A stretch of 64,000 bases of DNA from Candidatus Marinacidobacterium sp. (GTDB taxonomy: Bacteria > Acidobacteriota > Vicinamibacteria > Marinacidobacterales > Marinacidobacteraceae). The stretch spans positions 2,034,355-2,098,354 of the forward strand of contig OZ252286.1 of the NCBI GenBank assembly GCA_965250045.1. Direction: 5' to 3'. Of the stretch, positions 1,512 to 61,990 are shown in pieces. Below the pieces are notes generated by a model. It worked only from the letters and a program-made list of their open reading frames with translations. It was not told where the DNA came from and did not search any database. The position numbers and the translations under genes are program-made. Numbering within the stretch: the first letter of the stretch is position 1; each line of letters begins with the position of its first letter.

Positions 1512-3836
1512 TTGATTGCCGTTGAGGTCGCGGTTCCGCGCCCGCTGCCGGCCACCTTCACCTATGAGGCGCCGGCCTCCCTGCTGCACCCCGGCGAAAC
1601 CACGCTGCCCCCCGGCACCCGCGTGCGGGTCCCCTTCGGCCCCGGCGAGCTGACGGGCGTGGTGCTCGGCCCCGCCGACCCCCAAAAAACCAAACCCGGA
1701 GCCACCAACAAACTCACCCTCAAACCCATCCGCTCGCGCTTCGACGACCCGCTCCCGCCCCTCCCCGAAGACCTCCTCGCCCTCGCCCGCCGCCTCGCCG
1801 ACGCGACGGTCTGCCCGCTCGGCCTCGTCCTCCGGGCCATGCTCCCGGCCTCCCAGCCTCCCGGCCGAACCCTCCAGACCGCCCGGATCACCGCGGAGGG
1901 CTCCGCGCGCCTCGGCGAACCCGACGACCAACCCACCAAACACCTCCCCCGCCTGAGCCAGGACGACCGGCGCATCCTCACGCTGCTCGCCGTCTCCGGC
2001 GGCCCGGTGCCGCTGGTCCGGATCCGCCGCGAACTCGACCTCTCCCCCCGCCGGAGCTTCGCCCGCCTCGAGCGCGAGAGTTTCCTCGCCATCGCCGCCG
2101 AGCGCCTCTCCCCGGAGGTCAGAGATTCCACCCCCCCGACCACCGGACCCACCACCCCGCCGCCGCTCACCGCCCCCCAGCAAAAAGCGGCCGGCGCCCT
2201 CCGAAAAGCCCTCGCCGCCCGCACCTTCGGCGCCTTCCTGCTCGACGGGGTCACCGGCAGCGGCAAGACCGAGGTTTACTTCCAGGCGATCGCCGCCTGC
2301 CTCGAGACCGGCCGCAGCGCCCTCCTGCTCGTCCCCGAGATCGCGCTCGCCTCCCAGCAGGAAGCGCTCCTCCGCGCCCGCTTCGGCCCCGGCCCAACCA
2401 GCCCCGACACCCCCACCCCAACGACCACCACCCCCACCCCCGGCATCGCCGTCTTCCACAGCGGACTCGGCGCCGCCGAGCGCCGCACCGCCTTCTGGCG
2501 GATCCGCCGGGGCGAGGCGCGGATCGTGCTCGGGGCCCGCTCGGCGGTGCTCGCCCCCATCGACAACCTCGGGCTCGTGATCCTCGACGAGGAGCACGAC
2601 GCCGCCTACAAACAGGACGAGGCGCCGCGCTACCACGCCCGCCAAGCCGCCTGGCTCCGCGCCCGCGCCGCCGGCGCGACCATGATCCTCGGCTCGGCCA
2701 CCCCCTCGCTCGAAGCGGCCCACGCCGCCGACTCCGGCGCCCTCACCCGGCTCCGCCTCCCGGAACGAATCGCCGGCCGCCGGCTGCCCGAAGTCGAAAT
2801 CGTGGACATGCGCCCCCTCTTCCACGAGCACTACAAAAACCCCGCCCGCCGCGGGCCGCTGATCCTCTCCCCCGACCTCGAAACCGCGCTCAAGGAAACC
2901 GTCGCCGCCGGCCGGCAGGCGCTCGTCCTCCTGAACCGGCGCGGCTACGGAGGGCGGATGGCATGCCTGCGCTGCGGCGAGATCGTCGAATGCCGCCGCT
3001 GCGGCGTCGCGCTCACCCTCCACCGGCGCGGGAGCCTCGCCGTCTGTCACGCCTGCGGGGTTGGGATGGCGCCGCCCGAGGAATGCCCGGCCTGCGGCGG
3101 TGACGTGCTCCGCTCCGAGGGCTTCGGAACCGAGCGCGTGGAGGAGGAGGTGTCCCGTCTCCTCCCCGACGTCCGGGTCGAGCGCTTCGACCGGGACACC
3201 ACCCGCGCCCGCGGCAGCCACGCCCGGACGCTCGACGCCTTCCGGCGGGGCGAGACCCGGGTGCTGGTGGGGACGCAGATGATCGCGAAGGGTCACGACT
3301 TCCCCGCCGTCACCTTGGTCGGGGTGGTGGCCGCCGACGGAGGGCTCGGCGCGCCCGATTTCCGGGCCGCCGAACGCACCTTCCAGCTCCTCACCCAAGT
3401 GGCGGGGCGGGCGGGCCGCGGGGAGAGCCCCGGCCGGGTCCTGATCCAGACGATGAAGCCCGACCACTACGCGGTCGCCGCCGCCGCCCGGCAGGATTAC
3501 CCGGCGTTCTTCGCCGTCGAGCGGGAGATGCGGCGCCGCTTCCGCTACCCCCCGTTCGTGCGCCTCGCGAGCCTCACGGTGACCGCGCGCACCTCGCGCC
3601 GCGCCGAGGCCGCGGCCGCCGAACTCGCCGAAAACCTCGCCACTCCGGACGCTCCCGCGTCGATCGAAATCGTCGGGCCGGCGCCCGCTCCGGGGCCCCG
3701 TCCGGAGGAGTTTTCACGCTGGCAGATGCTCGTCAAGGCGGCGCCCGCGGAACACCCTGCGCTTCGTCGGCGTCTTCGCCGCCTTCTGGAGGTCCCGGCG
3801 CTCGCCCGCGGACTTACCATCAACGACGATCCCTAG
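1512..3836 (+). CDS. priA: Primosomal protein N' (PriA helicase)
   Basis: Walker A GVTGSGKTEVY, DExH region and Cys4 zinc fingers (CLRCGEIVECRRCG, CHACG..CPACG); TTG start; 774 aa. Confidence 0.9.
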   Translation: MIAVEVAVPRPLPATFTYEAPASLLHPGETTLPPGTRVRVPFGPGELTGVVLGPADPQKTKPGATNKLTLKPIRSRFDDPLPPLPEDLLALARRLADATVCPLGLVLRAMLPASQPPGRTLQTARITAEGSARLGEPDDQPTKHLPRLSQDDRRILTLLAVSGGPVPLVRIRRELDLSPRRSFARLERESFLAIAAERLSPEVRDSTPPTTGPTTPPPLTAPQQKAAGALRKALAARTFGAFLLDGVTGSGKTEVYFQAIAACLETGRSALLLVPEIALASQQEALLRARFGPGPTSPDTPTPTTTTPTPGIAVFHSGLGAAERRTAFWRIRRGEARIVLGARSAVLAPIDNLGLVILDEEHDAAYKQDEAPRYHARQAAWLRARAAGATMILGSATPSLEAAHAADSGALTRLRLPERIAGRRLPEVEIVDMRPLFHEHYKNPARRGPLILSPDLETALKETVAAGRQALVLLNRRGYGGRMACLRCGEIVECRRCGVALTLHRRGSLAVCHACGVGMAPPEECPACGGDVLRSEGFGTERVEEEVSRLLPDVRVERFDRDTTRARGSHARTLDAFRRGETRVLVGTQMIAKGHDFPAVTLVGVVAADGGLGAPDFRAAERTFQLLTQVAGRAGRGESPGRVLIQTMKPDHYAVAAAARQDYPAFFAVEREMRRRFRYPPFVRLASLTVTARTSRRAEAAAAELAENLATPDAPASIEIVGPAPAPGPRPEEFSRWQMLVKAAPAEHPALRRRLRRLLEVPALARGLTINDDP

Positions 3837-4041: not shown

Positions 4042-4311
4042 ATGGTGAAGGCAGACCTTATCAATCGGGCGATGGCGGTCACGGATTTGTCGGCCCAGGA
4101 CGCCCGCGACGCCGTAGAGGCGCTCTTCGAGGGACTCCGGGCGGGTCTTGAACGCGGTGAGCGCGTTGTGCTGCGGAGGTTCGGCGTGTTCTACGCCGCT
4201 CCGCGCAAGACGGGGGTGGCGCGAAATCCGCGCACTGGCGAACCGGTGGGCATCCCCCGGGGACGGGTGGTGCGCTTCCGTCCCAGTCAGAACCTCCGCG
4301 GAGGTTCCTGA
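4042..4311 (+). CDS. HU/IHF-family DNA-binding protein
   Basis: MVKADLINRAMAVTDLS...RNPRTGEPVGIP..VRFRPSQ matches the HU fold signature; in-frame ATG 4042 gives the canonical ~90 aa. Confidence 0.8.
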   Translation: MVKADLINRAMAVTDLSAQDARDAVEALFEGLRAGLERGERVVLRRFGVFYAAPRKTGVARNPRTGEPVGIPRGRVVRFRPSQNLRGGS

Positions 4312-4473
4312 CCCCCAGTCGGGGGAAGACCGGGGGAACGACCGGGGGAAACCGGGGCGAAAGTGTGAGGGGGGCTTGTCCCCCGTTTCACGACACCGGG
4401 GCGCTACTGTCCACGCGCTTCAGTGCCTGACTACGAACCTCCTGGCGTGCCCCCGGCCCGGACCGCGCGACGC

Positions 4474-6314: not shown

Positions 6315-6730
6315 TGGCGGCGAGGGACGGCGGGCTCCAGATTCCGAACAAGCTCTACTTCCGGATCGGCGAGGTCAGCGAGATCACCGGGGTGCAGCCA
6401 TACACCCTCCGTCACTGGGAGATGGAGTTCCCGACGCTGAGCCCCAAGAAGAACGATTCGGGCCAGCGTCTCTACCGCAAGGAAGACATCGAGATGGTGA
6501 ACACCATCCAGCGGCTCCTGCACAGCGAGGGATACACCACCGCGGGCGCCCGTCGCCTGTTGAGTGCGAAGCGCGGAACGCGTCCGGCGGTCCCGAAGCC
6601 TCCTCCCCCGCCCCCGAAACCCGACCCACCGCGCCTCTCGCCGGCCGCGCTCGAAGCGGTGACCGCGGCTCTCGAATTGATGGACCGGAACGACGAGCGG
6701 ATCGCCCGCCTGGAGGCCCCGGAGGACTAG
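6311..6730 (+). CDS. MerR-family transcriptional regulator
   Basis: HTH YFRIGEVSEITGVQPYTLRHWE; 4-nt overlap with the upstream IHF gene. Confidence 0.8.
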   Translation: MMAARDGGLQIPNKLYFRIGEVSEITGVQPYTLRHWEMEFPTLSPKKNDSGQRLYRKEDIEMVNTIQRLLHSEGYTTAGARRLLSAKRGTRPAVPKPPPPPPKPDPPRLSPAALEAVTAALELMDRNDERIARLEAPED

Positions 6731-6746
6731 AATCCGAACGATCCGT

Positions 6747-6823
6747 CGGGACGTGGCGCAGTCTGGTAGCGCACTTGCTTGGGGTGCAAGTGGTCGTCGG
6801 TTCAAATCCGGCCGTCCCGACCA
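6747..6823 (+). tRNA. tRNA-Pro (anticodon GGG)
   Basis: Hand-folded cloverleaf: acceptor CGGGACG/CGTCCCG, anticodon stem CTTGC/GCAAG with loop TTGGGGT, T-loop GGTTCAAATCC, encoded CCA. Confidence 0.85.
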
Positions 6824-6901
6824 CCAAGCGGTTCGGGAGTGGGGGCACTGTCTGGAGTGGCCTCGGATTGTGAAGGCAACCGGCGTTGAGCCCCCACTCC
6901 C

Positions 6902-7069
6902 CCGAACCGCCCGGCGCTTCGCGCCGGGAATCGCAAATCCCTTGCGCGCCGTAGGCGCGCGGCGGCGAGTTCCGATTCGTATTGCCTTTTTGTGAAAGGG
7001 GGGCGGTGGCCCCCCTTTCACACTTTCCCCCCGGTCACGCCGGCGGCGAACCGGAGGTTCGCCGCCTTT
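6902..7069 (+). repeat. Family-C structured repeat (copy 1): four hairpins ending in a GC hairpin plus T-run (terminator-like)
   Basis: Near-identical to 61470..61643 and to the 5' part at 39288..39362; ends GCGGCGAACCggagGTTCGCCGCC + TTTGTTTTTTT. Confidence 0.6.
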
Positions 7070-7279
7070 GTTTTTTTGGCGCGGTCGGCCAAGCCGGATT
7101 TCTCATACTCACGGTCGCAGGAAGGGTTCAACTTGCCGCAACTTGTTGACAATCCGAACAGTTCTTCGTGAAGCTCAGACTCCCGAACGGCGCGCTGGTC
7201 AGGGACCGCCGACCTTGGGCAGTTGCTGTGAAAATGCAGTTGCGCCTAGCCCCCGAAAGAGCGGGTGGCGCGCAGGCAC

Positions 7280-7304
7280 GGGAACGCCGACTTCTGGTCG
7301 GCAC
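7280..7304. repeat. Family-A 25-bp hairpin motif
   Basis: GGGAACGCCGACTTCTGGTCGGCAC. Confidence 0.6.
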
Positions 7305-7496
7305 GCGCGGGAGCGCGAAACCAGCGCCGATGACGCTGCGCCTTACCAACCTGAGGGCAGCACCCTCTTTCAACCCCGGATGGCGCAACCCCGCACTCGG
7401 TGAAGCTGCGCGGCGATCCTTGGTGCTGTCTGCGCCATGGGTGACAGCAGCATTGCGCCACTCGCCCGCCTCCGGCGGGCTGTGCCGGCCGCCACC

Positions 7497-7590
7497 GGGA
7501 GAACTGGCCGGAGGTCGGCGTTCCCTTGCCTGCGCGCCATCGTGCTGGCCGGAGGTCGGCGTTCCCTTGCCTGCGCGCCACCGTGCCGGC
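7497..7590. repeat. Two tandem inverted-orientation family-A units (41-bp period)
   Basis: CCGGAGGTCGGCGTTCCCTTGCCTGCGCGCCA repeated twice in tandem. Confidence 0.6.
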
Positions 7591-7802
7591 CCTCCCCGGG
7601 AGAACCGCCCGCGGCTCATCTTCGTTTCCATCCGTTGATTCCTCCCCGTGAATACCAAGCCTTCGCACCAGCTCGGCGCCCCCCCAAGCCCGGCGCAGAA
7701 GACAAAATCCGGCGCACCGCGGCGCGCCTTCTCCCACCCCCGACAGCTACGCCGACCCGCAATCCGGCGCTCCTTTTCCCCGCTACAATCCCACCCGGCC
7801 GC

Positions 7803-7876
7803 CGGGGCGTGGCTCAGTCTGGCAGAGCACCTGGTTCGGGATCAGGGGGTCGCAGGTTCAAATCCTGCCGCCCCGA
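7803..7876 (+). tRNA. tRNA-Pro (anticodon CGG)
   Basis: Acceptor CGGGGCG/CGCCCCG, D-arm GCTCAGTCTGGCAGAGC, anticodon loop TTCGGGA, T-loop GGTTCAAATCC; CCA not encoded; GC hairpin 7882..7898 follows. Confidence 0.85.
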
Positions 7877-8354
7877 CGCGGCCCGTCCCCCGGACGGGTT
7901 CCGGCCCCGAGGCGGCCACGGCATCCGGCTGGCTGCTTCGGACGCATTCTTTCCGCCCTTTCCCATCCCGGGATCGGGCACTCATTTCGGCACTCATCTA
8001 AGGACCAAAACATGTATATTCCGGCGTTCTTGCCGGAGACGGTTTGTCCCGGCGAGTGCACTTTATGTTGCCCTTGCTTCTTGACATTCCCAAATCGGAT
8101 GTGATGGAGTTAGCCCGCATGTTCGCCCCGAGCACCCCTGCCTATTCAACGGTCAGGGTGCGTTCGGAGGCTCACCTCGCTGGGTCCTTGCCCCTTGGTC
8201 CGACCGCGCATATACTTGCCGCGCGGTTGGCTGGTGCGGGAACGCGGCGGTTTGCCTTGTCCTACCAGAGGTGGGAATGAATACACGAGACGGTGCTTAG
8301 CCCCTTCGGGGCTTTGAACTTGTCCCCAACGACCTACTACAGGAGGTAGGCGAA

Positions 8355-18799: not shown

Positions 18800-19037
18800 A
18801 CAGCCTGTGGACAAAGCCACGAGGCCCAGTTCTCCCGGTGGGGGCTCGACTGGCGATGCATCCCGGCTGAACCGCGCCTCTGCGCGGCGCTCATCGTTGC
18901 GCTTCGGTCGAAATACACTCGGGTCAGTTCTCCCGGTGGGGGCTCCTCCCTTGCGCGCCTTGTCAGCCGGACCCCCACCGGGAGAACTGGGCCTCACCAG
19001 CCTCGACGCTCACGCCACTTTGTCCACCGGCTGTTAC
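18800..19037. mobile_element. Family-B MITE-like element (copy B1) with terminal inverted repeats CAGCCTGTGGACAAAG / CTTTGTCCACCGGCTG
   Basis: TIRs read directly; related copies at 34550..34732, 45775..46440 (array) and 52184..52372. Confidence 0.6.
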
Positions 19038-19051
19038 GCTCCGGAGACGCG

Positions 19052-34549: not shown

Positions 34550-34732
34550 AGTGGACGGCCCGTGAACAAAGCGGCGCGGTGTTCGATCGGCGATGCATCC
34601 CGACTGGACCGCTTCGCTCATCGTTGCGCTCCAGTCGGCATACGCTCGGTATGCCTCCCGAACCGCGCCTTGCCAGTCGGGCGCCTCGCCGATCTCGGCG
34701 CTCACGCCACTTTGTCCAAGGACTGTCAAGAG
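34550..34732. mobile_element. Family-B MITE-like element (copy B2, left end truncated)
   Basis: Shares internal sequence and right TIR CTTTGTCCAAGGACTG with B1/B3/B4. Confidence 0.5.
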
Positions 34733-37350: not shown

Positions 37351-37528
37351 CGCAGGCAATCAGCCGCGTAGCAGGACCGTCGTCAGCGTCCCCAGGAAGG
37401 TTCCGAGCAGAAGAATCAGGTTCGGCTCCGTCCCAATGCCCGGTCGGCGGCCCGCACTACCCGGCCTCCCCGCGCCACTGGCACAATCCCCACCATCGCA
37501 CCGGGAACCCGGTGGAGGGGGGCACGCC

Positions 37529-39250
37529 ATGCGCGACGGCAAGGCACTCACCGCGGCTTGGCCGCTGGCCCTGATCGCGGCGCTCGCCGCGTTCGGCTGT
37601 CGAGGGCCCGGAGGGGCCGCGTTCTCGGTGACGTTCGGCGCCGACCGGAGTCCCGAGCCCCTGGACGGTCGGCTGGTCCTCATGCTCTCCCAGGACGACG
37701 CGGCGGAGCCGCGCTTCCAGATCGTGGACGGCCCGGACAGCCAGTTGGCGTTCGGGGTGGACGTCGAGGGGTGGGCGCCGGGAGAGCCGGTGATGGTGGA
37801 CGGCGGGGCTTTCGGCTACCCGATCCGCAGCCTGGCCGAGGTTCCGGCCGGGGAGTACCGGGTTCAGGCGCTGCTGAACCGCTATCAGACCTACCAGCGG
37901 GCCGACGGCCACACCGTCAAGCTTCCGCCCGACCGGGGTGAAGGACAGCAGTGGAACCGCAAGCCCGGGAACCTGCTCTCCACCCCGCAGACGGTCTCGC
38001 TGGGGCCGGGAGGATCGGCCCGCATCGACATCGTGCTCGACCAGGAGATCCCCCCGCTGGCGGTGCCGCCCGAGTCGGAATACGTGAAGCACGTCAGGAT
38101 CGAGAGCGAGCTCCTCACCGCCTTTTGGGGGACTCCCACCGAACTCGGGGCCTGGGTGCTCCTCCCGCACGGCTTCGACGAGCATCCGGAGGCGCGCTAT
38201 CCGATCGCCGTCAACCACGGCCATTTCCCCTACACCTTCGGCAACTGGCGGGAAGAGCCCCCGGACCCCGACCTGGAGTGCGAGTACTCCGCCCGCTTCG
38301 ACCTCCCCTGCTACAACCGGATCCAGCAGGAACACGCATGGCAGCTCTATCAGGACTGGACCGGCGACGACTTCCCCCGGATGCTGGTGGTGGAGATCCA
38401 GCACGCCAATCCGTTCTACGACGATTCCTACGCGGTGAATTCGGAGAACGTCGGCCCCTACGGCGACGCCATTACCTACGAGCTCATTCCCGAGATCGAA
38501 CGCCGGTTCCGCGGGATCGGGGAGGGGTGGGCGCGCTTCCTCTACGGCGGCTCCACCGGGGGCTGGGAGGCGATGGCCGCGCAGGTGTTCTATCCCGAGG
38601 AGTACAACGGGGCGTGGATCGCCTGCCCGGACCCCATCGACTTCCGGGCGTTCACCGTGGTCAACCTCTACGAAGACGAAAACGCCTACCACCTCGACAG
38701 CCCGTTCAAGCGGACACCGAGGCCCGGGCGGCGGGACGGGCAGGGACACGTCCTGGCGACTCTCGAGGAGATGAACCACCGGGAGCTGGTCCTGGGAACC
38801 CGCACCCGGTCGGGTCAGCAGTGGGATGTGTGGGAAGCGGTCTACTCACCGGTCGGCGAGGACGGGTATCCCCGCCGCATCTGGGACAAGGTCACCGGGG
38901 AGATCGACCCGGAGGTGGCCGCCTACTGGCGGGAGAATTACGACCTCAGCTTCATCCTGCGCCGCGACTGGGAGACCCTGGGGCCCCGGATCGCCGGCAA
39001 ACTCCACATCTACGTGGGGGACATGGACAACTACTACCTGAACAACGCGGTCAAGCTCACCGAGGACTTCCTGGAGGCCACCTCGGATCCCCCCTACGGC
39101 GGGGAAGTGGACTACGGGGACGGCGACGAGCACTGCTGGAACGGCGACCACACCCGCGGCAACGGGTTTTCCCGCCTCCGGTACATCCAGATGTTCGCCC
39201 CCCGCATTCAGGGTCGAGCGGTCCCCGGACGGGGCCACGAGCGGGAGTAG
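37529..39250 (+). CDS. Lipoprotein esterase-family alpha/beta hydrolase
   Basis: Lipobox-like AAFGC; nucleophile-elbow-like GGSTGGW; RBS GGTGGAGGGGGG. Confidence 0.7.
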   Translation: MRDGKALTAAWPLALIAALAAFGCRGPGGAAFSVTFGADRSPEPLDGRLVLMLSQDDAAEPRFQIVDGPDSQLAFGVDVEGWAPGEPVMVDGGAFGYPIRSLAEVPAGEYRVQALLNRYQTYQRADGHTVKLPPDRGEGQQWNRKPGNLLSTPQTVSLGPGGSARIDIVLDQEIPPLAVPPESEYVKHVRIESELLTAFWGTPTELGAWVLLPHGFDEHPEARYPIAVNHGHFPYTFGNWREEPPDPDLECEYSARFDLPCYNRIQQEHAWQLYQDWTGDDFPRMLVVEIQHANPFYDDSYAVNSENVGPYGDAITYELIPEIERRFRGIGEGWARFLYGGSTGGWEAMAAQVFYPEEYNGAWIACPDPIDFRAFTVVNLYEDENAYHLDSPFKRTPRPGRRDGQGHVLATLEEMNHRELVLGTRTRSGQQWDVWEAVYSPVGEDGYPRRIWDKVTGEIDPEVAAYWRENYDLSFILRRDWETLGPRIAGKLHIYVGDMDNYYLNNAVKLTEDFLEATSDPPYGGEVDYGDGDEHCWNGDHTRGNGFSRLRYIQMFAPRIQGRAVPGRGHERE

Positions 39251-39287
39251 GTCTGTTCCTCCGTTCTGATTGCGACGGGGCCCCGTC

Positions 39288-39362
39288 CGGGAACCGCCCG
39301 GCGCTTCGCGCCGGCAATCGAAACTCCCTTGCGCGCCTTCGGCCCGCGGCGGCGAGTGGTGG
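39288..39362 (+). repeat. Family-C repeat (copy 2, 5' part only)
   Basis: CGGGAACCGCCCGGCGCTTCGCGCCGGCAATCGAAACTCCCTTGCGCGCCTTCGGC... Confidence 0.5.
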
Positions 39363-39375
39363 GGCTGCGCCGTGT

Positions 39376-39700
39376 GCTCTTGCGGCACGCAGGCACGGGA
39401 ACGCCGACCTCCGGTCGGCACCGCTGGGCGAAGCCCAGGGAAACCGCGTATCGCTGTTTGAGAAAAATCGCGGGGACGGCTTGGAACGCCGACCTCCGGT
39501 CGGCACAGCCCGCCGCAGGCGGGCGGAACGGCGGGCTGCCAATCGGCATGAAGCGCGGATGCGAAAGCCATCCGGGGTGGAGAGACGGTGCGGAACCCAC
39601 GCTGGCTCGGGCACAGCGTCATCGGCGCCGGTTTCGCGCTCCCGCGCGATGCCGGCCGGAGGCCGGCGGTCCGTTTCCTGCAGCGCCACCGCGTGGGGGA
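39376..39700. repeat. Family-A composite cluster
   Basis: Same two-motif unit as 37150..37350 plus an inverted partial unit. Confidence 0.55.
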
Positions 39701-44579: not shown

Positions 44580-45113
44580 GTGTCCGACGCCGACCGCGCC
44601 TCCGCCCGCCGCATCGTCCGCACCGCCTTCTTCATCGGCGGGGCGATCTTCGCCTTCATCATCTGGCAGCTCTACCTGCGGCCTCCCGCGACCTCGGTCC
44701 CCGAGTGGACCGCGTCGCTGCCCGCGCTGAACGCCGCCTTCAACGCGACAACCACCACGCTCATCTGCCTGGGGGTGCTCGCGATCAAGAACGGCCGGCG
44801 CCGGCTCCACGCCGGGTTCCAGATCACCGCGCTGGTGTCCGCCGGTCTCTTCCTCGCCGGCTATCTCACCTACCACCACTTCCAGGGCGATACCCCCTAT
44901 CCGGGGACCGGCTTTTTGCGCCCCATCTACTTCTTCTGCCTGATCACCCACGTCATGGCTTCCGCCGTCTCCGTGCCGCTCATCCTCACGACGGTGTCGT
45001 TCGCCGCGACACGCCGGTTTTCCTGGCACCGCCGCTGGGCGCGGGTTACGGTCCCCGTCTGGCTCTACGCGTCGCTGACCGGCCTCGTCGTCTACGCGAT
45101 GCTCCACGGTTGA
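44580..45113 (+). CDS. DUF420-family membrane protein (tentatively CtaM-like)
   Basis: Four hydrophobic helices; GTG start; divergent from argR. Confidence 0.65.
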   Translation: MSDADRASARRIVRTAFFIGGAIFAFIIWQLYLRPPATSVPEWTASLPALNAAFNATTTTLICLGVLAIKNGRRRLHAGFQITALVSAGLFLAGYLTYHHFQGDTPYPGTGFLRPIYFFCLITHVMASAVSVPLILTTVSFAATRRFSWHRRWARVTVPVWLYASLTGLVVYAMLHG

Positions 45114-45154
45114 ACGCCGTCCCCGCCCCCGAGCCCCACCCCAAGGAGTTCCCG

Positions 45155-45774: not shown

Positions 45775-46440
45775 GCGGGCTGAGCAGCCTGTGCACAAAG
45801 TCATGCGGCCCAGTTCTCCCGGTGGGGGCTCGGCCGGCGATCCATCCCGGCCAAACAGCCGGTGGTGAAACCCACGCGGCCCAGTTCTCCCGGTGGGGGC
45901 TCGACCGGCGATCCATCCCGGCCAAACAGCCGGTGATGAAACCCACGCGGCGTTCGACCGGCGATCCATCCCGGCCAAACAGCCGGTGATGAAACCCACG
46001 CGGCGTTCGACCGGCGATCCATCCCGGCTGAACCGAGTCGCTTCGCGCCGCTCGTCGTTGCGTTTCGGTCGGAATACACCAAGTATTCCTCCCTCACGCG
46101 CCTTGTCAGCCGGGCGCCTCCCCGGCCTCGGCGCTCACGTGGGTTCCACCACCGGCTGAACCGAGTCGCTTCGCGCCGCTCGTCGTTGCGTTTCGGTCGG
46201 AATACACCCGGGCCAGTTCTCCCGGTGGGGGCTCCTCCCTCACGCGCCTTGTCAGCCGGGCGCCTCCCCGGCCTCGGCGCTCACGTGGGTTCCACCACCG
46301 GCTGTTCACCGCGTCGCTTCGCGCCGCTCGTCGTTGCGTTTCGGTCGAAATACACTCGGTATTCCTCCCTCACGCGCCTTGTCAGCCGGGCGCCTCGCCG
46401 ACCTCGGCGCTCACGCCACTTTGTCCACAGGCTGCTAAGT
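45775..46440. repeat. Tandem array of family-B MITE fragments (3 x ~60-70 bp subrepeats then 3 x ~150 bp subrepeats)
   Basis: Repeated CCCAGTTCTCCCGGTGGGGGCTCG..., CGACCGGCGATCCATCCCGGCCAAACAGCCGGTGATGAAACCCACGCGG and GCTGAACCGAGTCGCTTCGCGCCGCTCGTCGTTGCGTTTCGGTCGGAATACAC blocks. Confidence 0.65.
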
Positions 46441-48393: not shown

Positions 48394-49116
48394 ATGATGA
48401 CGACGAACCGCAAATCCTTCCGCGCTGCCGGTCTGGCGCTCGCCGCCGCGCTCGCGGTGCCGGCGTTCACCGCGGCCGCATCCTGGCCGGTGGGCGGAAG
48501 CCGCTACCAGATCCGCGTGCGCACCCCGCTCAAGACCCGGGTGGTGATGGGCCCGGTGGGACGCGGGTACCTGGGCGTCCAGATGCTGGACCTCACCGAG
48601 GAACTCCGCGAGTTCTACGGCGCCCCGAAGGACGCCGGCATCCTCGTGTCGCGGGTGGCCGACGATAGTCCGGCGGCCGCCGCCGGGTTCGAAGTCGGTG
48701 ACGTGATCATCGGGGTCGGCGGCGAACCGACGCATAACTCCCGGGATGTCATGCGCGAGGTGGCCCGGTTCGAGCCGGAAGACCAGGTCACGGTGGAGGT
48801 CATCCGCGCGGGTGCTCCCCTCACCGTGGACGCCACGCTCGGCGAACGGGAGGGAGGCGTGTGGTTCAGCCGTGGCTTCGAAGGGCCCGAATTCCGGGAA
48901 TTCCACTTCGAGATGCCTGAGATGCAGGGCCTCGAGGTGCTGCGGGACCTCCCGAGCACCATCAACGAGGAAACGCAGGAGGCGGTGCGGCAGGCGATCG
49001 AGGCAGCCCGCGAGCGCATGAGCGAAATCGATTTCGAGGGGCTTACGGAGCGCCTCGCGGCGACCGAAGCGCGCCTCCGCGAACTGGAAAAGAAACTCGC
49101 CGAACGCGAGCGCTGA
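48394..49116 (+). CDS. Periplasmic PDZ-domain protein
   Basis: Signal peptide; PDZ-like GYLGVQMLDLTEEL...GDVIIGVGG; RBS AAAGGAGAAA. Confidence 0.7.
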   Translation: MMTTNRKSFRAAGLALAAALAVPAFTAAASWPVGGSRYQIRVRTPLKTRVVMGPVGRGYLGVQMLDLTEELREFYGAPKDAGILVSRVADDSPAAAAGFEVGDVIIGVGGEPTHNSRDVMREVARFEPEDQVTVEVIRAGAPLTVDATLGEREGGVWFSRGFEGPEFREFHFEMPEMQGLEVLRDLPSTINEETQEAVRQAIEAARERMSEIDFEGLTERLAATEARLRELEKKLAERER

Positions 49117-49158
49117 GCAACCGCGGATCGCTGACTGGTGCAGTGGTCCGGGAGGCAA

Positions 49159-49340
49159 GGGAACGCCGACCTCCGGTCGGCACAGCCCGCCGAAGGCGGG
49201 CGGCAGGGAAGGACCCCGAGTTCAGGGGTGGTTCACCTCTCGGCCGGAACCCGGGCGTTCAGCGCCATCCAGACGGTTGCGCGGTACACGCCTTTCGCTG
49301 CGCTCCGCGCAGCGGTGCCGACCGGAGGTCGGCGTTCCCG
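49159..49340. mobile_element. Family-A MITE, full copy with 25-bp terminal inverted repeats GGGAACGCCGACCTCCGGTCGGCAC
   Basis: Left TIR 49159..49183 and right TIR 49316..49340 are exact reverse complements; near-identical copy at 61735..61923. Confidence 0.7.
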
Positions 49341-49573
49341 TGCCTGCACGTCGCTCCGCCCGGTGGCCGGGGCGCCGAGACCTGCACCATCCCGGAACTG
49401 CAACTTCGTGCCCAGGCGGGGTGTACGGGAAGACCCGATCATGAGGGTTTCTCCCGGTGGGGCCCGGCACCGCCCCGCGCAGCGGGGCGAAACCGCGCCG
49501 CGCCGCCCCTCCGGATGGCACCCCGCAAACGGAAGGCTTACCCTCCGCCCTACGCCCACCCCGGGAGGTTCCC

Positions 49574-52069: not shown

Positions 52070-52183
52070 CGATAGGGAAACGCGATCCCAATCGTGTGCG
52101 CGCGGCTTTTGGCGGCGGGAGAAAAGCGCGGTCGGCAGCTCAGGTGCGGGCTCATCGCGGCGCGTTCGACTACTGTCCTTGAC

Positions 52184-52372
52184 AGCCTGTGGCAAAATCC
52201 ACGCGGCGTTCGACCGGCGATCCATCCCGGCTGAACCACTCCGCTTCGCTACGTTCTGCGTTGCGTTTCGGTCGAAATACACCCGGTATTCCTCCCTCAC
52301 GCGCCTTGTCAGCCGGGCGCCTCACCGGCCTCGGCGCTCACGCGGGTTTCACCACAGGCTGTTAACGGTTGC
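52184..52372. mobile_element. Family-B MITE-like element (copy B4) with TIR CAGCCTGTGG / CCACAGGCTG
   Basis: Read directly. Confidence 0.6.
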
Positions 52373-61098: not shown

Positions 61099-61392
61099 AT
61101 GGCAGGCAAGATAGATGTTGCCAAAGCGCTCGCCGTGAAACACGGCGTCAAGTACAACCGTGGGAAGGGTCCCGACATCCGGACGGACAAGATCACCATC
61201 AACGTCGAGACGGCGCGCACCCTGCGTACCGCGTGCGGCAGGCTCCGTGGTTTCCGGGGTCCCGTGTACGTGGCTTGCGCAAACGACGCCGACATCGAAA
61301 ACGCCAAGGGCATCATCGTGGGAAAGACCGTCGGCCTCATGAACAACAAGGGCCGCATCCTCAAGAAATCCACCCGCGGCCGCTGGCCCTGA
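61099..61392 (+). CDS. Small basic hypothetical protein (97 aa)
   Basis: Good RBS CCAGGAGG and ATG; no recognisable motif; GC ~60%. Confidence 0.45.
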   Translation: MAGKIDVAKALAVKHGVKYNRGKGPDIRTDKITINVETARTLRTACGRLRGFRGPVYVACANDADIENAKGIIVGKTVGLMNNKGRILKKSTRGRWP

Positions 61393-61469
61393 CGTCGAGC
61401 GGTCCGGAAGGGGGGCGCCGATCCCCTTTGGTGGTTCGTTATTCGTTTGTTCGAAGGTGAGCCCCCCTT

Positions 61470-61643
61470 CCGAACCGCCCGGCGCTTCGCGCCGGCAATC
61501 GAAACTCCCTTGCGCGCCTTCGGCGCGCGGCGGCGAGTTCCGATTGGTCGCTGCCTTTTTGTGAAAGGGGGGCGGTAGCCCCCCTTTCACACTTTCCCCC
61601 CGAACACGCGGGCAGCGAACGGAGTTCGCTGCCATTGTTTTTT
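61470..61643 (+). repeat. Family-C structured repeat (copy 3)
   Basis: Near-identical to 6902..7069, including TGTGAAAGGGGGGCGGTAGCCCCCCTTTCACAC and the terminal hairpin + T-run. Confidence 0.6.
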
Positions 61644-61734
61644 ACGCGCTCGGCTAACCGCCGCCCACACAAGGTGGCGCCGTCGGTACGGGAACGCCGC
61701 CCCAGACCGATACGGTGGCGCGTAGGCGCGGGAA

Positions 61735-61923
61735 CGCCGCCCTCCGGGCAGTTCTCCCGGTGGGGCCCGGCACAGCCCGCCGCAGGCGGGCGGCAGGGAG
61801 GGACCCCGAGTTCGGGGGTGGCTCGCCTCTCGGCCGGGACCCCGGCGTTCAGCGTCATCCGGACGGCTGCGTGGTACACGCCTTTCGCTGCGCTTCGCGC
61901 AGCGGTGCCGACCGGAGGTCGGC
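61735..61923. mobile_element. Family-A MITE (copy near-identical to 49159..49340), preceded by a partial unit at 61695..61734
   Basis: Shared ~170-bp internal sequence and right TIR GTGCCGACCGGAGGTCGGCGTTCCC. Confidence 0.65.
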
Positions 61924-61990
61924 GTTCCCTTGCCCGGCCGCCACCCCCGGGCCCCGCTTGGTAGATTCCCACCCTGGCGGGGCGGCACCT

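Follow-up and report, generated by a model that had tools for sequence, protein, structure and literature searches.

Family C, a mosaic repeat of five helices and a candidate gene-end cassette in a small clade of Vicinamibacteria

What kind of element is a hairpin-rich repeat that recurs on one strand of a chromosome directly behind unrelated genes? The question arises in a 64-kb stretch of Candidatus Marinacidobacterium sp. (contig OZ252286.1), referred to here as the window, in which three copies of a repeat termed family C lie on the + strand. A sequence-only reading of the window had offered a structured small RNA (sRNA), a terminator-carrying MITE (a miniature transposable element with inverted repeats) or an orientation-specific insertion element. 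A structured, terminator-ending repeat is indeed present, and genome-wide; a strict MITE, a free-standing sRNA gene and an absolute orientation find no support. The anatomy of the element, the covariation of its helices, its positions, its clade distribution and its modular turnover are direct observations. The repeat itself is real; we propose, with a probability of roughly 55%, that family C is a clade-specific, non-autonomous interspersed mosaic repeat acting as a 3' untranslated region (3'-UTR) and terminator cassette, that is, as a portable gene-end module.

A full copy consists of five helices, H0 to H4, and spans about 250 nt. The length of about 170 nt given earlier was too short, as the element starts some 80 nt further 5' with a fifth hairpin, H0, that had been overlooked and was recognised by aligning the copies together with their flanks. 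H0 combines a conserved base (AGCGGT...ACCGC) and a covarying 19-20-bp stem with a fast-evolving tip of about 45 nt, which carries its own small hairpin and differs in sequence between subfamilies. H1 is invariant (CCGGCGC-TTC-GCGCCGG), H2 forms an extended helix that covaries and mostly has a C(UNCG)G loop as its cap, and H3, again invariant (GTGAAAGGGGGG/CCCCCCTTTCAC), is followed by the tract CTTTCCCCCC, which is conserved and unpaired across copies. H4 has a GC-rich stem of 10-11 bp and a loop of 3-5 nt and runs directly into a U-tract (TTTGTTTTTT), an arrangement conserved across copies; in copy 1, a terminator scan identified it as an intrinsic-terminator-like site (GGCGGCGAACCGGAGGTTCGCCGCC plus TTTGTTTTTT, 7042-7066). 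The four stem-loops and T-run described before fold as stated (z = -4.9 and -6.3 against dinucleotide shuffles), and the five-helix folds of the extended copies reach z = -6.7 (copy 1, 6824-7080) and -7.1 (copy 3).

The helices are backed by covariation. In an RNAalifold consensus of 45 diverse copies, 24 of the 62 predicted pairs have changed on both sides, compared with 12.3 expected, so that a lack of compensatory change, which would have told against the structured element described earlier, is not what the alignment gives. Paired cells make up 97.6%, as opposed to 91.1% in column shuffles, a level reached by none of 500 shuffles, and a shift of the 3' partners by 1-3 columns makes all these measures collapse. 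The two-sided changes fall in H0 (11 of 18 pairs), H2 (8 of 18) and H4 (5 of 9); the nearly invariant H1 and H3 show none. The H2 loops found by a search pattern read C(UUCG/UGCG/UCCG)G in 46 of 71 cases, with only the N position variable, and this preference for UNCG hints at RNA in a strand-specific manner.

Both ends of the element are defined and unlike each other. Copies that share no common downstream linker diverge immediately past the T-run, which places the 3' boundary at the U-tract. No terminal inverted repeats were found, the 5' end (AGCGGTYCSGG...) being unrelated to the reverse complement of the 3' end (AAAAAAACAATGGCAGCGAAC), and no direct repeat pairs the 5' and 3' flanks as a target-site duplication in the 42 copies inspected (three more could not be parsed). 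Family C is short (about 250 nt), non-coding and multi-copy (121 copies), as a MITE would be, but the absence of terminal inverted repeats and target-site duplications removes it from that class. Indels of 1-2 nt among the copies led us to reject a coding element.

The placement of the copies links them to gene ends. Of 71 cluster-first copies, 49 have the same orientation as the nearest gene upstream; among the 32 cases with that gene no more than 130 nt away, 27 are co-oriented and 5 opposite. Orientation with the upstream gene is therefore the usual state and not an absolute one, as anti-oriented arrays exist. Downstream genes are oriented at random (31 versus 30). Measured from the stop codon, the core begins at distances that cluster at 67-89 nt, the length of H0. 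At the junctions of the 97 copies that retain the 5' core, a co-oriented open reading frame (ORF) ends with its stop codon 2-12 nt before AGCGGT in 16 copies, with the TGA sharing the element's first A in five of them, and in four a co-oriented ORF reads into H0. Eight copies lie 2-8 nt downstream of the end of a tRNA (Pro, Val, Leu or His). Within 120 nt upstream, 18 copies have a hairpin of a second, REP-like repeat, family A, and 10 a fragment of another family-C copy; 25 are unclassified, among them several evident ORF ends missed by the thresholds, and in 16 the 5' arm of H0 was not found. Such a position, downstream of a co-oriented gene or as a tRNA trailer, is that of a terminator, with exceptions.

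The three copies in the window (Table 1) illustrate these contexts and were found at the positions first noticed. Copy 1 starts 3 nt past the CCA end of tRNA-Pro(GGG), and the leader of copy 3 abuts the TGA stop of a 97-aa ORF; these two neighbours had been named correctly, and the supposed esterase before copy 2 is a 604-aa ORF with no Pfam match. The last 14 or so codons of that ORF derive from the leader and H0 of copy 2, its TAG stop (39248-39250) lying in the H0 tip, and its ortholog in locus L091 has a different, longer C-terminus of its own that ends in TGA and is followed by a full element. Copy 2, described earlier as a 5' part only, is truncated, but it breaks off after half of H2 and then jumps to sequence that the copy in L025 has 3' of its T-run. 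Copy 2 has no H3, no H4 and no terminator, and its positional ortholog in L091 is complete. For copy 3, positional orthologs exist in L076 and in L061. When gaps are scored as differences, copies 1 and 3 are 86% identical, copies 2 and 3 90%, and copies 2 and 1 83%, for which the earlier figure of about 90% was slightly generous. A sigma-70-like promoter was not found in window 6500-8000, although the consensus scanned may differ from acidobacterial promoters, and an sRNA would have no room for a promoter of its own, since a mere 0-12 nt separate the element from the stop codon or tRNA in front of it. This makes a free-standing sRNA gene unlikely.

Table 1. Family-C copies and accompanying features in the window (window coordinates).
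Feature	Position	Strand	Evidence	Remarks
tRNA-Pro(GGG)	6747..6823	+	ARAGORN, Rfam tRNA	
Family-C copy 1, full length	6827..7077	+	sequence, five-helix fold, terminator scan, nhmmer E = 1.5e-49	
Copy 1, H0	5' arm 6828-6846; variable tip 6847-6889; 3' arm 6890-6910	+	sequence, fold	
Copy 1, H1, H2 and H3	6910-6928; 6928-6978; 6991-7022	+	sequence, fold	
Copy 1, C-tract, H4 terminator stem and T-run	7022-7031; 7042-7066; 7067-7077	+	sequence, terminator scan	C-tract CTTTCCCCCC
Family-A (REP-like) hairpin unit after copy 1	7274..7316	+	repeat search	inverted partner ~7490-7582
604-aa ORF	37436..39250	+	gene call, Pfam search, sequence	no Pfam match
Family-C copy 2, internally deleted	39212..39357	+	sequence, nhmmer model positions 7-73, fold	
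Copy 2, content	H0 5' arm 39218-39236; H0 3' arm 39278-39297			leader CAGGGTCG, H0, H1, 5' half of H2
Family-A unit after copy 2	39391..39433	+		45 nt past breakpoint; second unit 39476-39518
97-aa ORF	61099..61392	+	gene call, Pfam search	no Pfam match
Family-C copy 3, full length	61393..61643	+	sequence, fold, nhmmer E = 1.1e-55	
Copy 3, landmarks	AGCGGT at 61398; H0 3' arm 61461-61478; T-run end 61643			leader CGTCG after TGA 61390-61392
Degenerate family-A unit after copy 3	61724..61766	+		inverted partner 61905-61945
Solo degenerate H3-like hairpin and C-tract	4349..4395	-	nhmmer model positions 92-139, E = 7.8e-5; sequence	3' of a small + strand ORF ending at 4311

Family C is specific to a small clade of Vicinamibacteria, comprising Ca. 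Marinacidobacterium and its relatives. A scan of one genome per species for the invariant 21-mer CCGCCCGGCGCTTCGCGCCGG returned 100 stretches, and nhmmer searches of the window and 62 loci yielded 121 copies, 69 of them near full length and often several per 8 kb. The 62 loci belong to about seven related Vicinamibacteria / Ca. Marinacidobacterium assemblies: 59 tabulated loci fall in five of them (CBDHFO01 and OZ244986 from Ca. Marinacidobacterium; CAXXLQ01, OY729431 and OZ219816 from Vicinamibacteria), and L032 and L095 are in two more metagenome-assembled genomes (MAGs) of Acidobacteriota. Listed by assembly, the group with full elements consists of these five, RHO1_bin_67 and one more Acidobacteria bin, and names such as RHO1_bin_67 suggest sponge-associated hosts. 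Among the 21-mer matches, neither BLAST nor nhmmer found a full element outside this group of Acidobacteriota MAGs; the matches in Puniceicoccales, Streptomyces, Sorangium and others cover just 21-36 nt around the H1 hairpin and are not the element. A 22-mer of H3 and the C-tract matched eight metagenome contigs, five with clear copies, and none of the viral contigs. In Rfam (release 15), tRNAs alone pass the gathering thresholds, and in E-value mode the best non-tRNA matches score at most 22 bits, compared with thresholds of 35-100. At about 93% identity, the window shares synteny with CBDHFO010000017.1 and CAXXLQ010000004.1; it is therefore from a close relative, which allows positional orthologs to be compared.

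Such comparisons reveal a modular element in rapid turnover; both this modularity and the clade distribution had gone unnoticed in the sequence-only reading. Truncated copies break at helix boundaries, beginning at H2 or stopping after H1, within H2, or after H3 and the C-tract, and the H0 subfamily at one site often differs from genome to genome. When positional orthologs are compared, the H1-H4 core shows 85-98% identity, about the same as the 900-nt upstream flank (83-97%); H0 is 73-98% identical (73-87% in 10 of 11 pairs) and the 300 nt downstream 65-84%. The conservation of the core fits either purifying selection or homogenisation by gene conversion. In two haplotypes of one MAG, whose flanks are 98-99.6% identical, H0 and H1 are shared and the rest is wholly different: one haplotype continues with the canonical remainder and family A, the other with an unrelated module of about 90 nt, H2-H3 and the start of a new H0, and has no terminator. 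Similarly, a 43-nt spacer of the window (45110-45154) corresponds in L075 to an 860-nt block of family C, family A and other repeats, with a different last codon in the upstream gene, and an inverted family-A pair at 49106-49512 is replaced in L025 by an A-C-A arrangement. Every polymorphic site examined was a block replacement, and no clean pair of filled and empty sites was found; the data favour spread via recombination or gene conversion among copies over cut-and-paste insertion.

Family A is found alongside family C. A unit lies downstream of each window copy, as had been noted earlier, at about 208 nt from copy 1, 45 nt from the point where copy 2 breaks off and about 90 nt from copy 3. 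Of the 82 copies in related genomes that retain a 3' end, 28 are followed within 250 nt by a perfect same-orientation A hairpin, and in 20 of these 28 the spacing is 38-53 nt (mode 48), at a background density of 0.23 A hairpins per kb.

Based on these observations, we propose that family C would be transcribed as the 3' UTR or trailer of the preceding gene or tRNA and that H4 with its U-tract would end the transcript. The stacked helices upstream of H4 may shield the 3' end or serve as a structured 3' UTR. Because H0 begins within the footprint of the terminating ribosome, translation of the upstream gene should transiently open it; Liang, Rudd and Deutscher (2015) reportedly found translation in E. 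coli to be reduced by REP hairpins that lie at most about 15 nt from a stop codon. Families C and A belong to one mosaic repeat system, in which copies are gained, lost, cut at helix boundaries and swapped between sites, possibly through recombination or gene conversion between copies or by a trans-acting enzyme. A further idea, that pairing between H0 and H4 acts as an anti-terminator, was dropped on inspection, as the match is 6 nt long and occurs in some subfamilies alone.

Several observations weigh against this proposal. Copies occur in megabase-scale same-strand runs on CBDHFO010000017.1, CAXXLQ010000004.1 and OY729431.1 (loci L003-L100). On the first of these, nine loci between 0.09 and 2.25 Mb are all on the - strand, followed by '+', '-', '+' and '-' blocks; the second shows a similar pattern, and on the third all five loci are on the - strand. 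In runs tests, z came to about -3.6 and -2.4. The strand of the local genes fails to account for the runs, as two of the CBDHFO blocks contain 14 called genes co-oriented with the elements and 30 anti-oriented, compared with 46 and 20 in the other blocks, and the runs point to a DNA-level or replication-linked determinant. Tandem-gene contexts comprise 19 co-oriented clusters, 6 anti-oriented and 2 mixed ones, with anti-oriented arrays between co-directional genes in L055, L081 and L014. The gene calls behind these counts come from a crude ORF filter based on GC content at third codon positions (GC3) and made for this analysis. Folding of the minus strand is just as good. Single mismatches are rare, with no excess of G-U over A-C on the + strand (about 17 versus 27), and covariation by itself therefore cannot tell RNA hairpins from those of single-stranded DNA. 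The unvarying H1 and H3 could equally be read as recognition sites for a mobilising protein. Finally, transcription, termination, stabilisation and the mode of spread are all read from sequence.

The main alternative, possible though in our view unlikely, is that family C is instead a DNA-level mobile element, whose hairpins are single-stranded recognition structures for a trans-acting, strand-specific enzyme (for example an HUH/Y1 transposase like those of IS200/IS605 or RAYT), whose insertion is coupled to replication and whose terminator is incidental or limits harm. Such an origin would explain the strand runs, including the two CBDHFO blocks in which genes mostly oppose the elements, and the invariance of H1 and H3 beside the covarying H0, H2 and H4; the missing G-U bias, the lack of terminal inverted repeats and target-site duplications, as in hairpin-ended single-strand transposons, and the association with inverted pairs of REP-like family A also suit it. 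However, the 5' flank has no conserved target tetra- or pentanucleotide (it reads TCG, CCA, CTG, CAG, CGG, GTG and others), and in a test of replication polarity element strand does not track GC3 skew, which is the same in genes co-oriented and anti-oriented with the local element (-0.101 versus -0.104); per-locus GC skew was uninformative. Around the strand switch at about 2.26 Mb of CBDHFO010000017.1, a look for origin markers returned just housekeeping genes. No HUH or RAYT gene, and no cognate TnpA, turned up in the roughly 13% of a genome sampled and the 30 ORFs compared with Pfam, which was no systematic search. Polymorphic sites show block replacement and not clean insertion, and a mobile DNA element does not predict the abutment to stop codons and tRNA ends or a 3' boundary at the U-tract.

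We likewise hold it improbable, to a similar degree, that family C is primarily a multi-copy functional RNA of about 250 nt that RNase E or tRNA 3' processing frees from mRNA or tRNA co-transcripts. Such an RNA might act in trans as a protein or RNA sponge through its C-rich single strand, comparable to 3'ETS-leuZ of E. coli, a tRNA-trailer sponge RNA, or in cis as a regulator tied to translation termination, since H0 begins inside the footprint of the terminating ribosome. Five helices with strong covariation, the favoured UNCG loops, the conserved unpaired CTTTCCCCCC tract, the 3' terminator and a core conserved as well as the mostly coding upstream flank are what such an RNA would show, and the start 2-8 nt after four different tRNAs would give it a defined 5' end by tRNA 3' processing. 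Yet many copies are truncated, terminator-less or in tandem arrays, unlike a gene family under selection, antisense copies exist, no promoter-like site was found in window 6500-8000 and no relative in Rfam, and the conservation could stem from gene conversion.

We give little credence to a third scenario, in which a new kind of non-autonomous element specifically colonises transcript 3' ends, its edges being a stop codon or tRNA end and the U-tract, with its strand set at chromosome scale and a triplex of H3 and the C-tract protecting the 3' end; the chromosome-scale strand choice would then call for insertion guided by RNA ends or coupled to replication through single-strand DNA. The triplex was rejected as a candidate: TTT changes to ATT in 17 copies or to ATA in five with the stem unchanged, and C-run lengths correlate weakly. 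Chance similarity or an assembly artefact is hardly credible, since the GC-rich (68.7% GC), hairpin-rich genome and the possible mis-joining of long-read MAGs at repeats stand against nhmmer E-values down to 1e-55, occurrence in independent short-read and long-read assemblies of several species and orthologous positions in at least three genomes, a recurrence that refutes it.

Most likely, family C represents a portable gene-end module and a new family within a known class of bacterial repeats. It behaves like other structured intergenic repeats (REP/BIME, ERIC/YPAL, Correia, NIME, RIME, BOX and MIRU), but, unlike each of them, has a stop codon or the end of a tRNA as its limit at the 5' side and a U-tract at the 3' side. 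Like REP/BIME of Enterobacteria and REPIN of Pseudomonas, it is extragenic and of high copy number, lies at gene 3' ends and is built of reshuffled and truncated hairpin modules. REP/BIME elements are transcribed with their genes, and stabilisation of the upstream mRNA as well as attenuation of transcription have been reported for them. Within the mosaic, family A resembles the REP part, with an insertion sequence (IS) in its hairpin loop as IS1397 is in BIMEs. Mosaic clusters and a fixed C-to-A spacing are observed, but in contrast to the 20-40-nt REP palindrome family C is far larger, a fixed ordered array of five different helices over about 250 nt, unidirectional, with a canonical U-tract terminator and no GTAG motif.

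The resemblance to ERIC/IRU (YPAL), Correia/NEMIS, Neisseria NIME and Rhizobium RIME lies in structured, clade-restricted intergenic repeats in 3' UTRs. These repeats measure 100-170 nt, are co-transcribed in 3' UTRs, affect mRNA stability or termination depending on orientation and sometimes extend ORFs. They differ from family C in having terminal inverted repeats, one long imperfect palindrome and both orientations, with a TA duplication in Correia, whereas family C is polar, has two unlike ends and lacks terminal inverted repeats and target-site duplications. Mycobacterial MIRU are oriented with the flanking genes, and upstream stop codons overlap or abut them, much as with family C, but they are 40-100-bp direct-repeat units inside operons, with small ORFs, and not hairpins ending in a terminator. 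An ordinary Rho-independent terminator shares the stem, loop and U-tract of H4 and the position downstream of co-oriented genes and tRNAs; H4 differs as the last module of a repeated cassette common to many unrelated genes. Among mobile elements, the IS200/IS605-derived PATE are likewise without terminal inverted repeats and target-site duplications and share subterminal hairpins and strand polarity along the chromosome; the 4-5-nt target expected 5' of the left hairpin is missing in family C, whose left flanks vary, and so is a correlation with GC3 skew. An integron attC site was rejected, as the H0 base AGCGGT...ACCGC is not the R''/R' pair (RYYYAAC...GTTRRRY) and many subfamilies lack GTT; the dispersal of copies over the chromosome behind housekeeping genes and tRNAs also counts against it. 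Likewise, a group II intron fragment or ribozyme was dismissed, as Rfam gave no signal on either strand.

If the density of three copies per 64 kb holds genome-wide, a single repeat family would form the 3' ends of many unrelated genes and several tRNAs in these uncultured bacteria. The proposed cassette would then be a natural case of terminators and 3' UTRs distributed by a repeat, and a handle for mapping the ends of transcription units. The repeat causes mis-called ORFs (80-240-aa ORFs span family C) and altered C-termini of real genes, and because it turns over fast it can serve as a strain marker. That some helices covary and others are invariant provides, together with the chromosome-scale polarity, testable leads on how hairpin repeats spread in the absence of terminal inverted repeats.

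Further observations concern H3, the partner repeat and the surrounding sequence. The sequence CCCCCCTTTCACACTTTCCCCCC at window positions 7010-7032 and 61579-61601 is a perfect 23-nt mirror repeat, and CTTTCCCCCC is the sequence needed by a parallel pyrimidine third strand on the GAAAGGGGGG/CCCCCCTTTC stem, by which a triplex or H-DNA would be possible. Family-A hairpins (GGGAACGCCGACCTCCGGTCGGCAC) form inverted pairs 150-250 nt apart, like REPIN doublets (7274-7582, 49153-49345 and 61724-61945). An A unit starting with TAGG is found in L025 and L091, and in L025 its TAG is the stop codon of the upstream gene. The IS mentioned above encodes a 639-aa DDE_Tnp_1 transposase (Pfam E = 3.4e-6) and occurs in L076 at about 1527-3780 (CBDHFO010000017.1, about 2.4015-2.4038 Mb), with a second, 98% identical copy in L088 (3653-6150). 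Its terminal inverted repeats are CCCAACTTCGCCA...TGGCGAAGTTGGG, and its insertion falls precisely within the TTCA loop of a hairpin of family A (GCGCCGGTC-TTCA-GACCGGC), with TTCA on both sides; judged by this insertion site, it looks like a REP-loop-targeting element.

The 22-mer CCGCCCGGCGCTTCGCGCCGGG occurs on at least 12 contigs of several Puniceicoccales MAGs (loci L001, L008, L010, L018, L028, L042, L054, L068, L072, L084, L085, L093 and L099), where the rest of family C is absent; it probably represents an unrelated repeat or terminator hairpin that belongs to these MAGs themselves. About 29 of 31 called genes in the window are on the + strand. The syntenic region of CBDHFO010000017.1 (2.26-2.41 Mb) measures about 144 kb compared with 64 kb here, with much extra sequence in the relative. 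Other unrelated repeat families, tandem and dispersed (for example GGCCAGTTCTCCCGGTGGGGG and CGGCGATCCATCCCGGC), form intergenic filler at 45780-46440, 52180-52370, 18800-19040 and 34580-34730, and such repeats co-occur with C and A blocks in L075. The small + strand ORF at 4044-4311 (MVKADLINRAM...), which is followed by G/C-tract repeats and the minus-strand H3-like fragment, looks from its translation like an HU/IHF-type DNA-binding protein.

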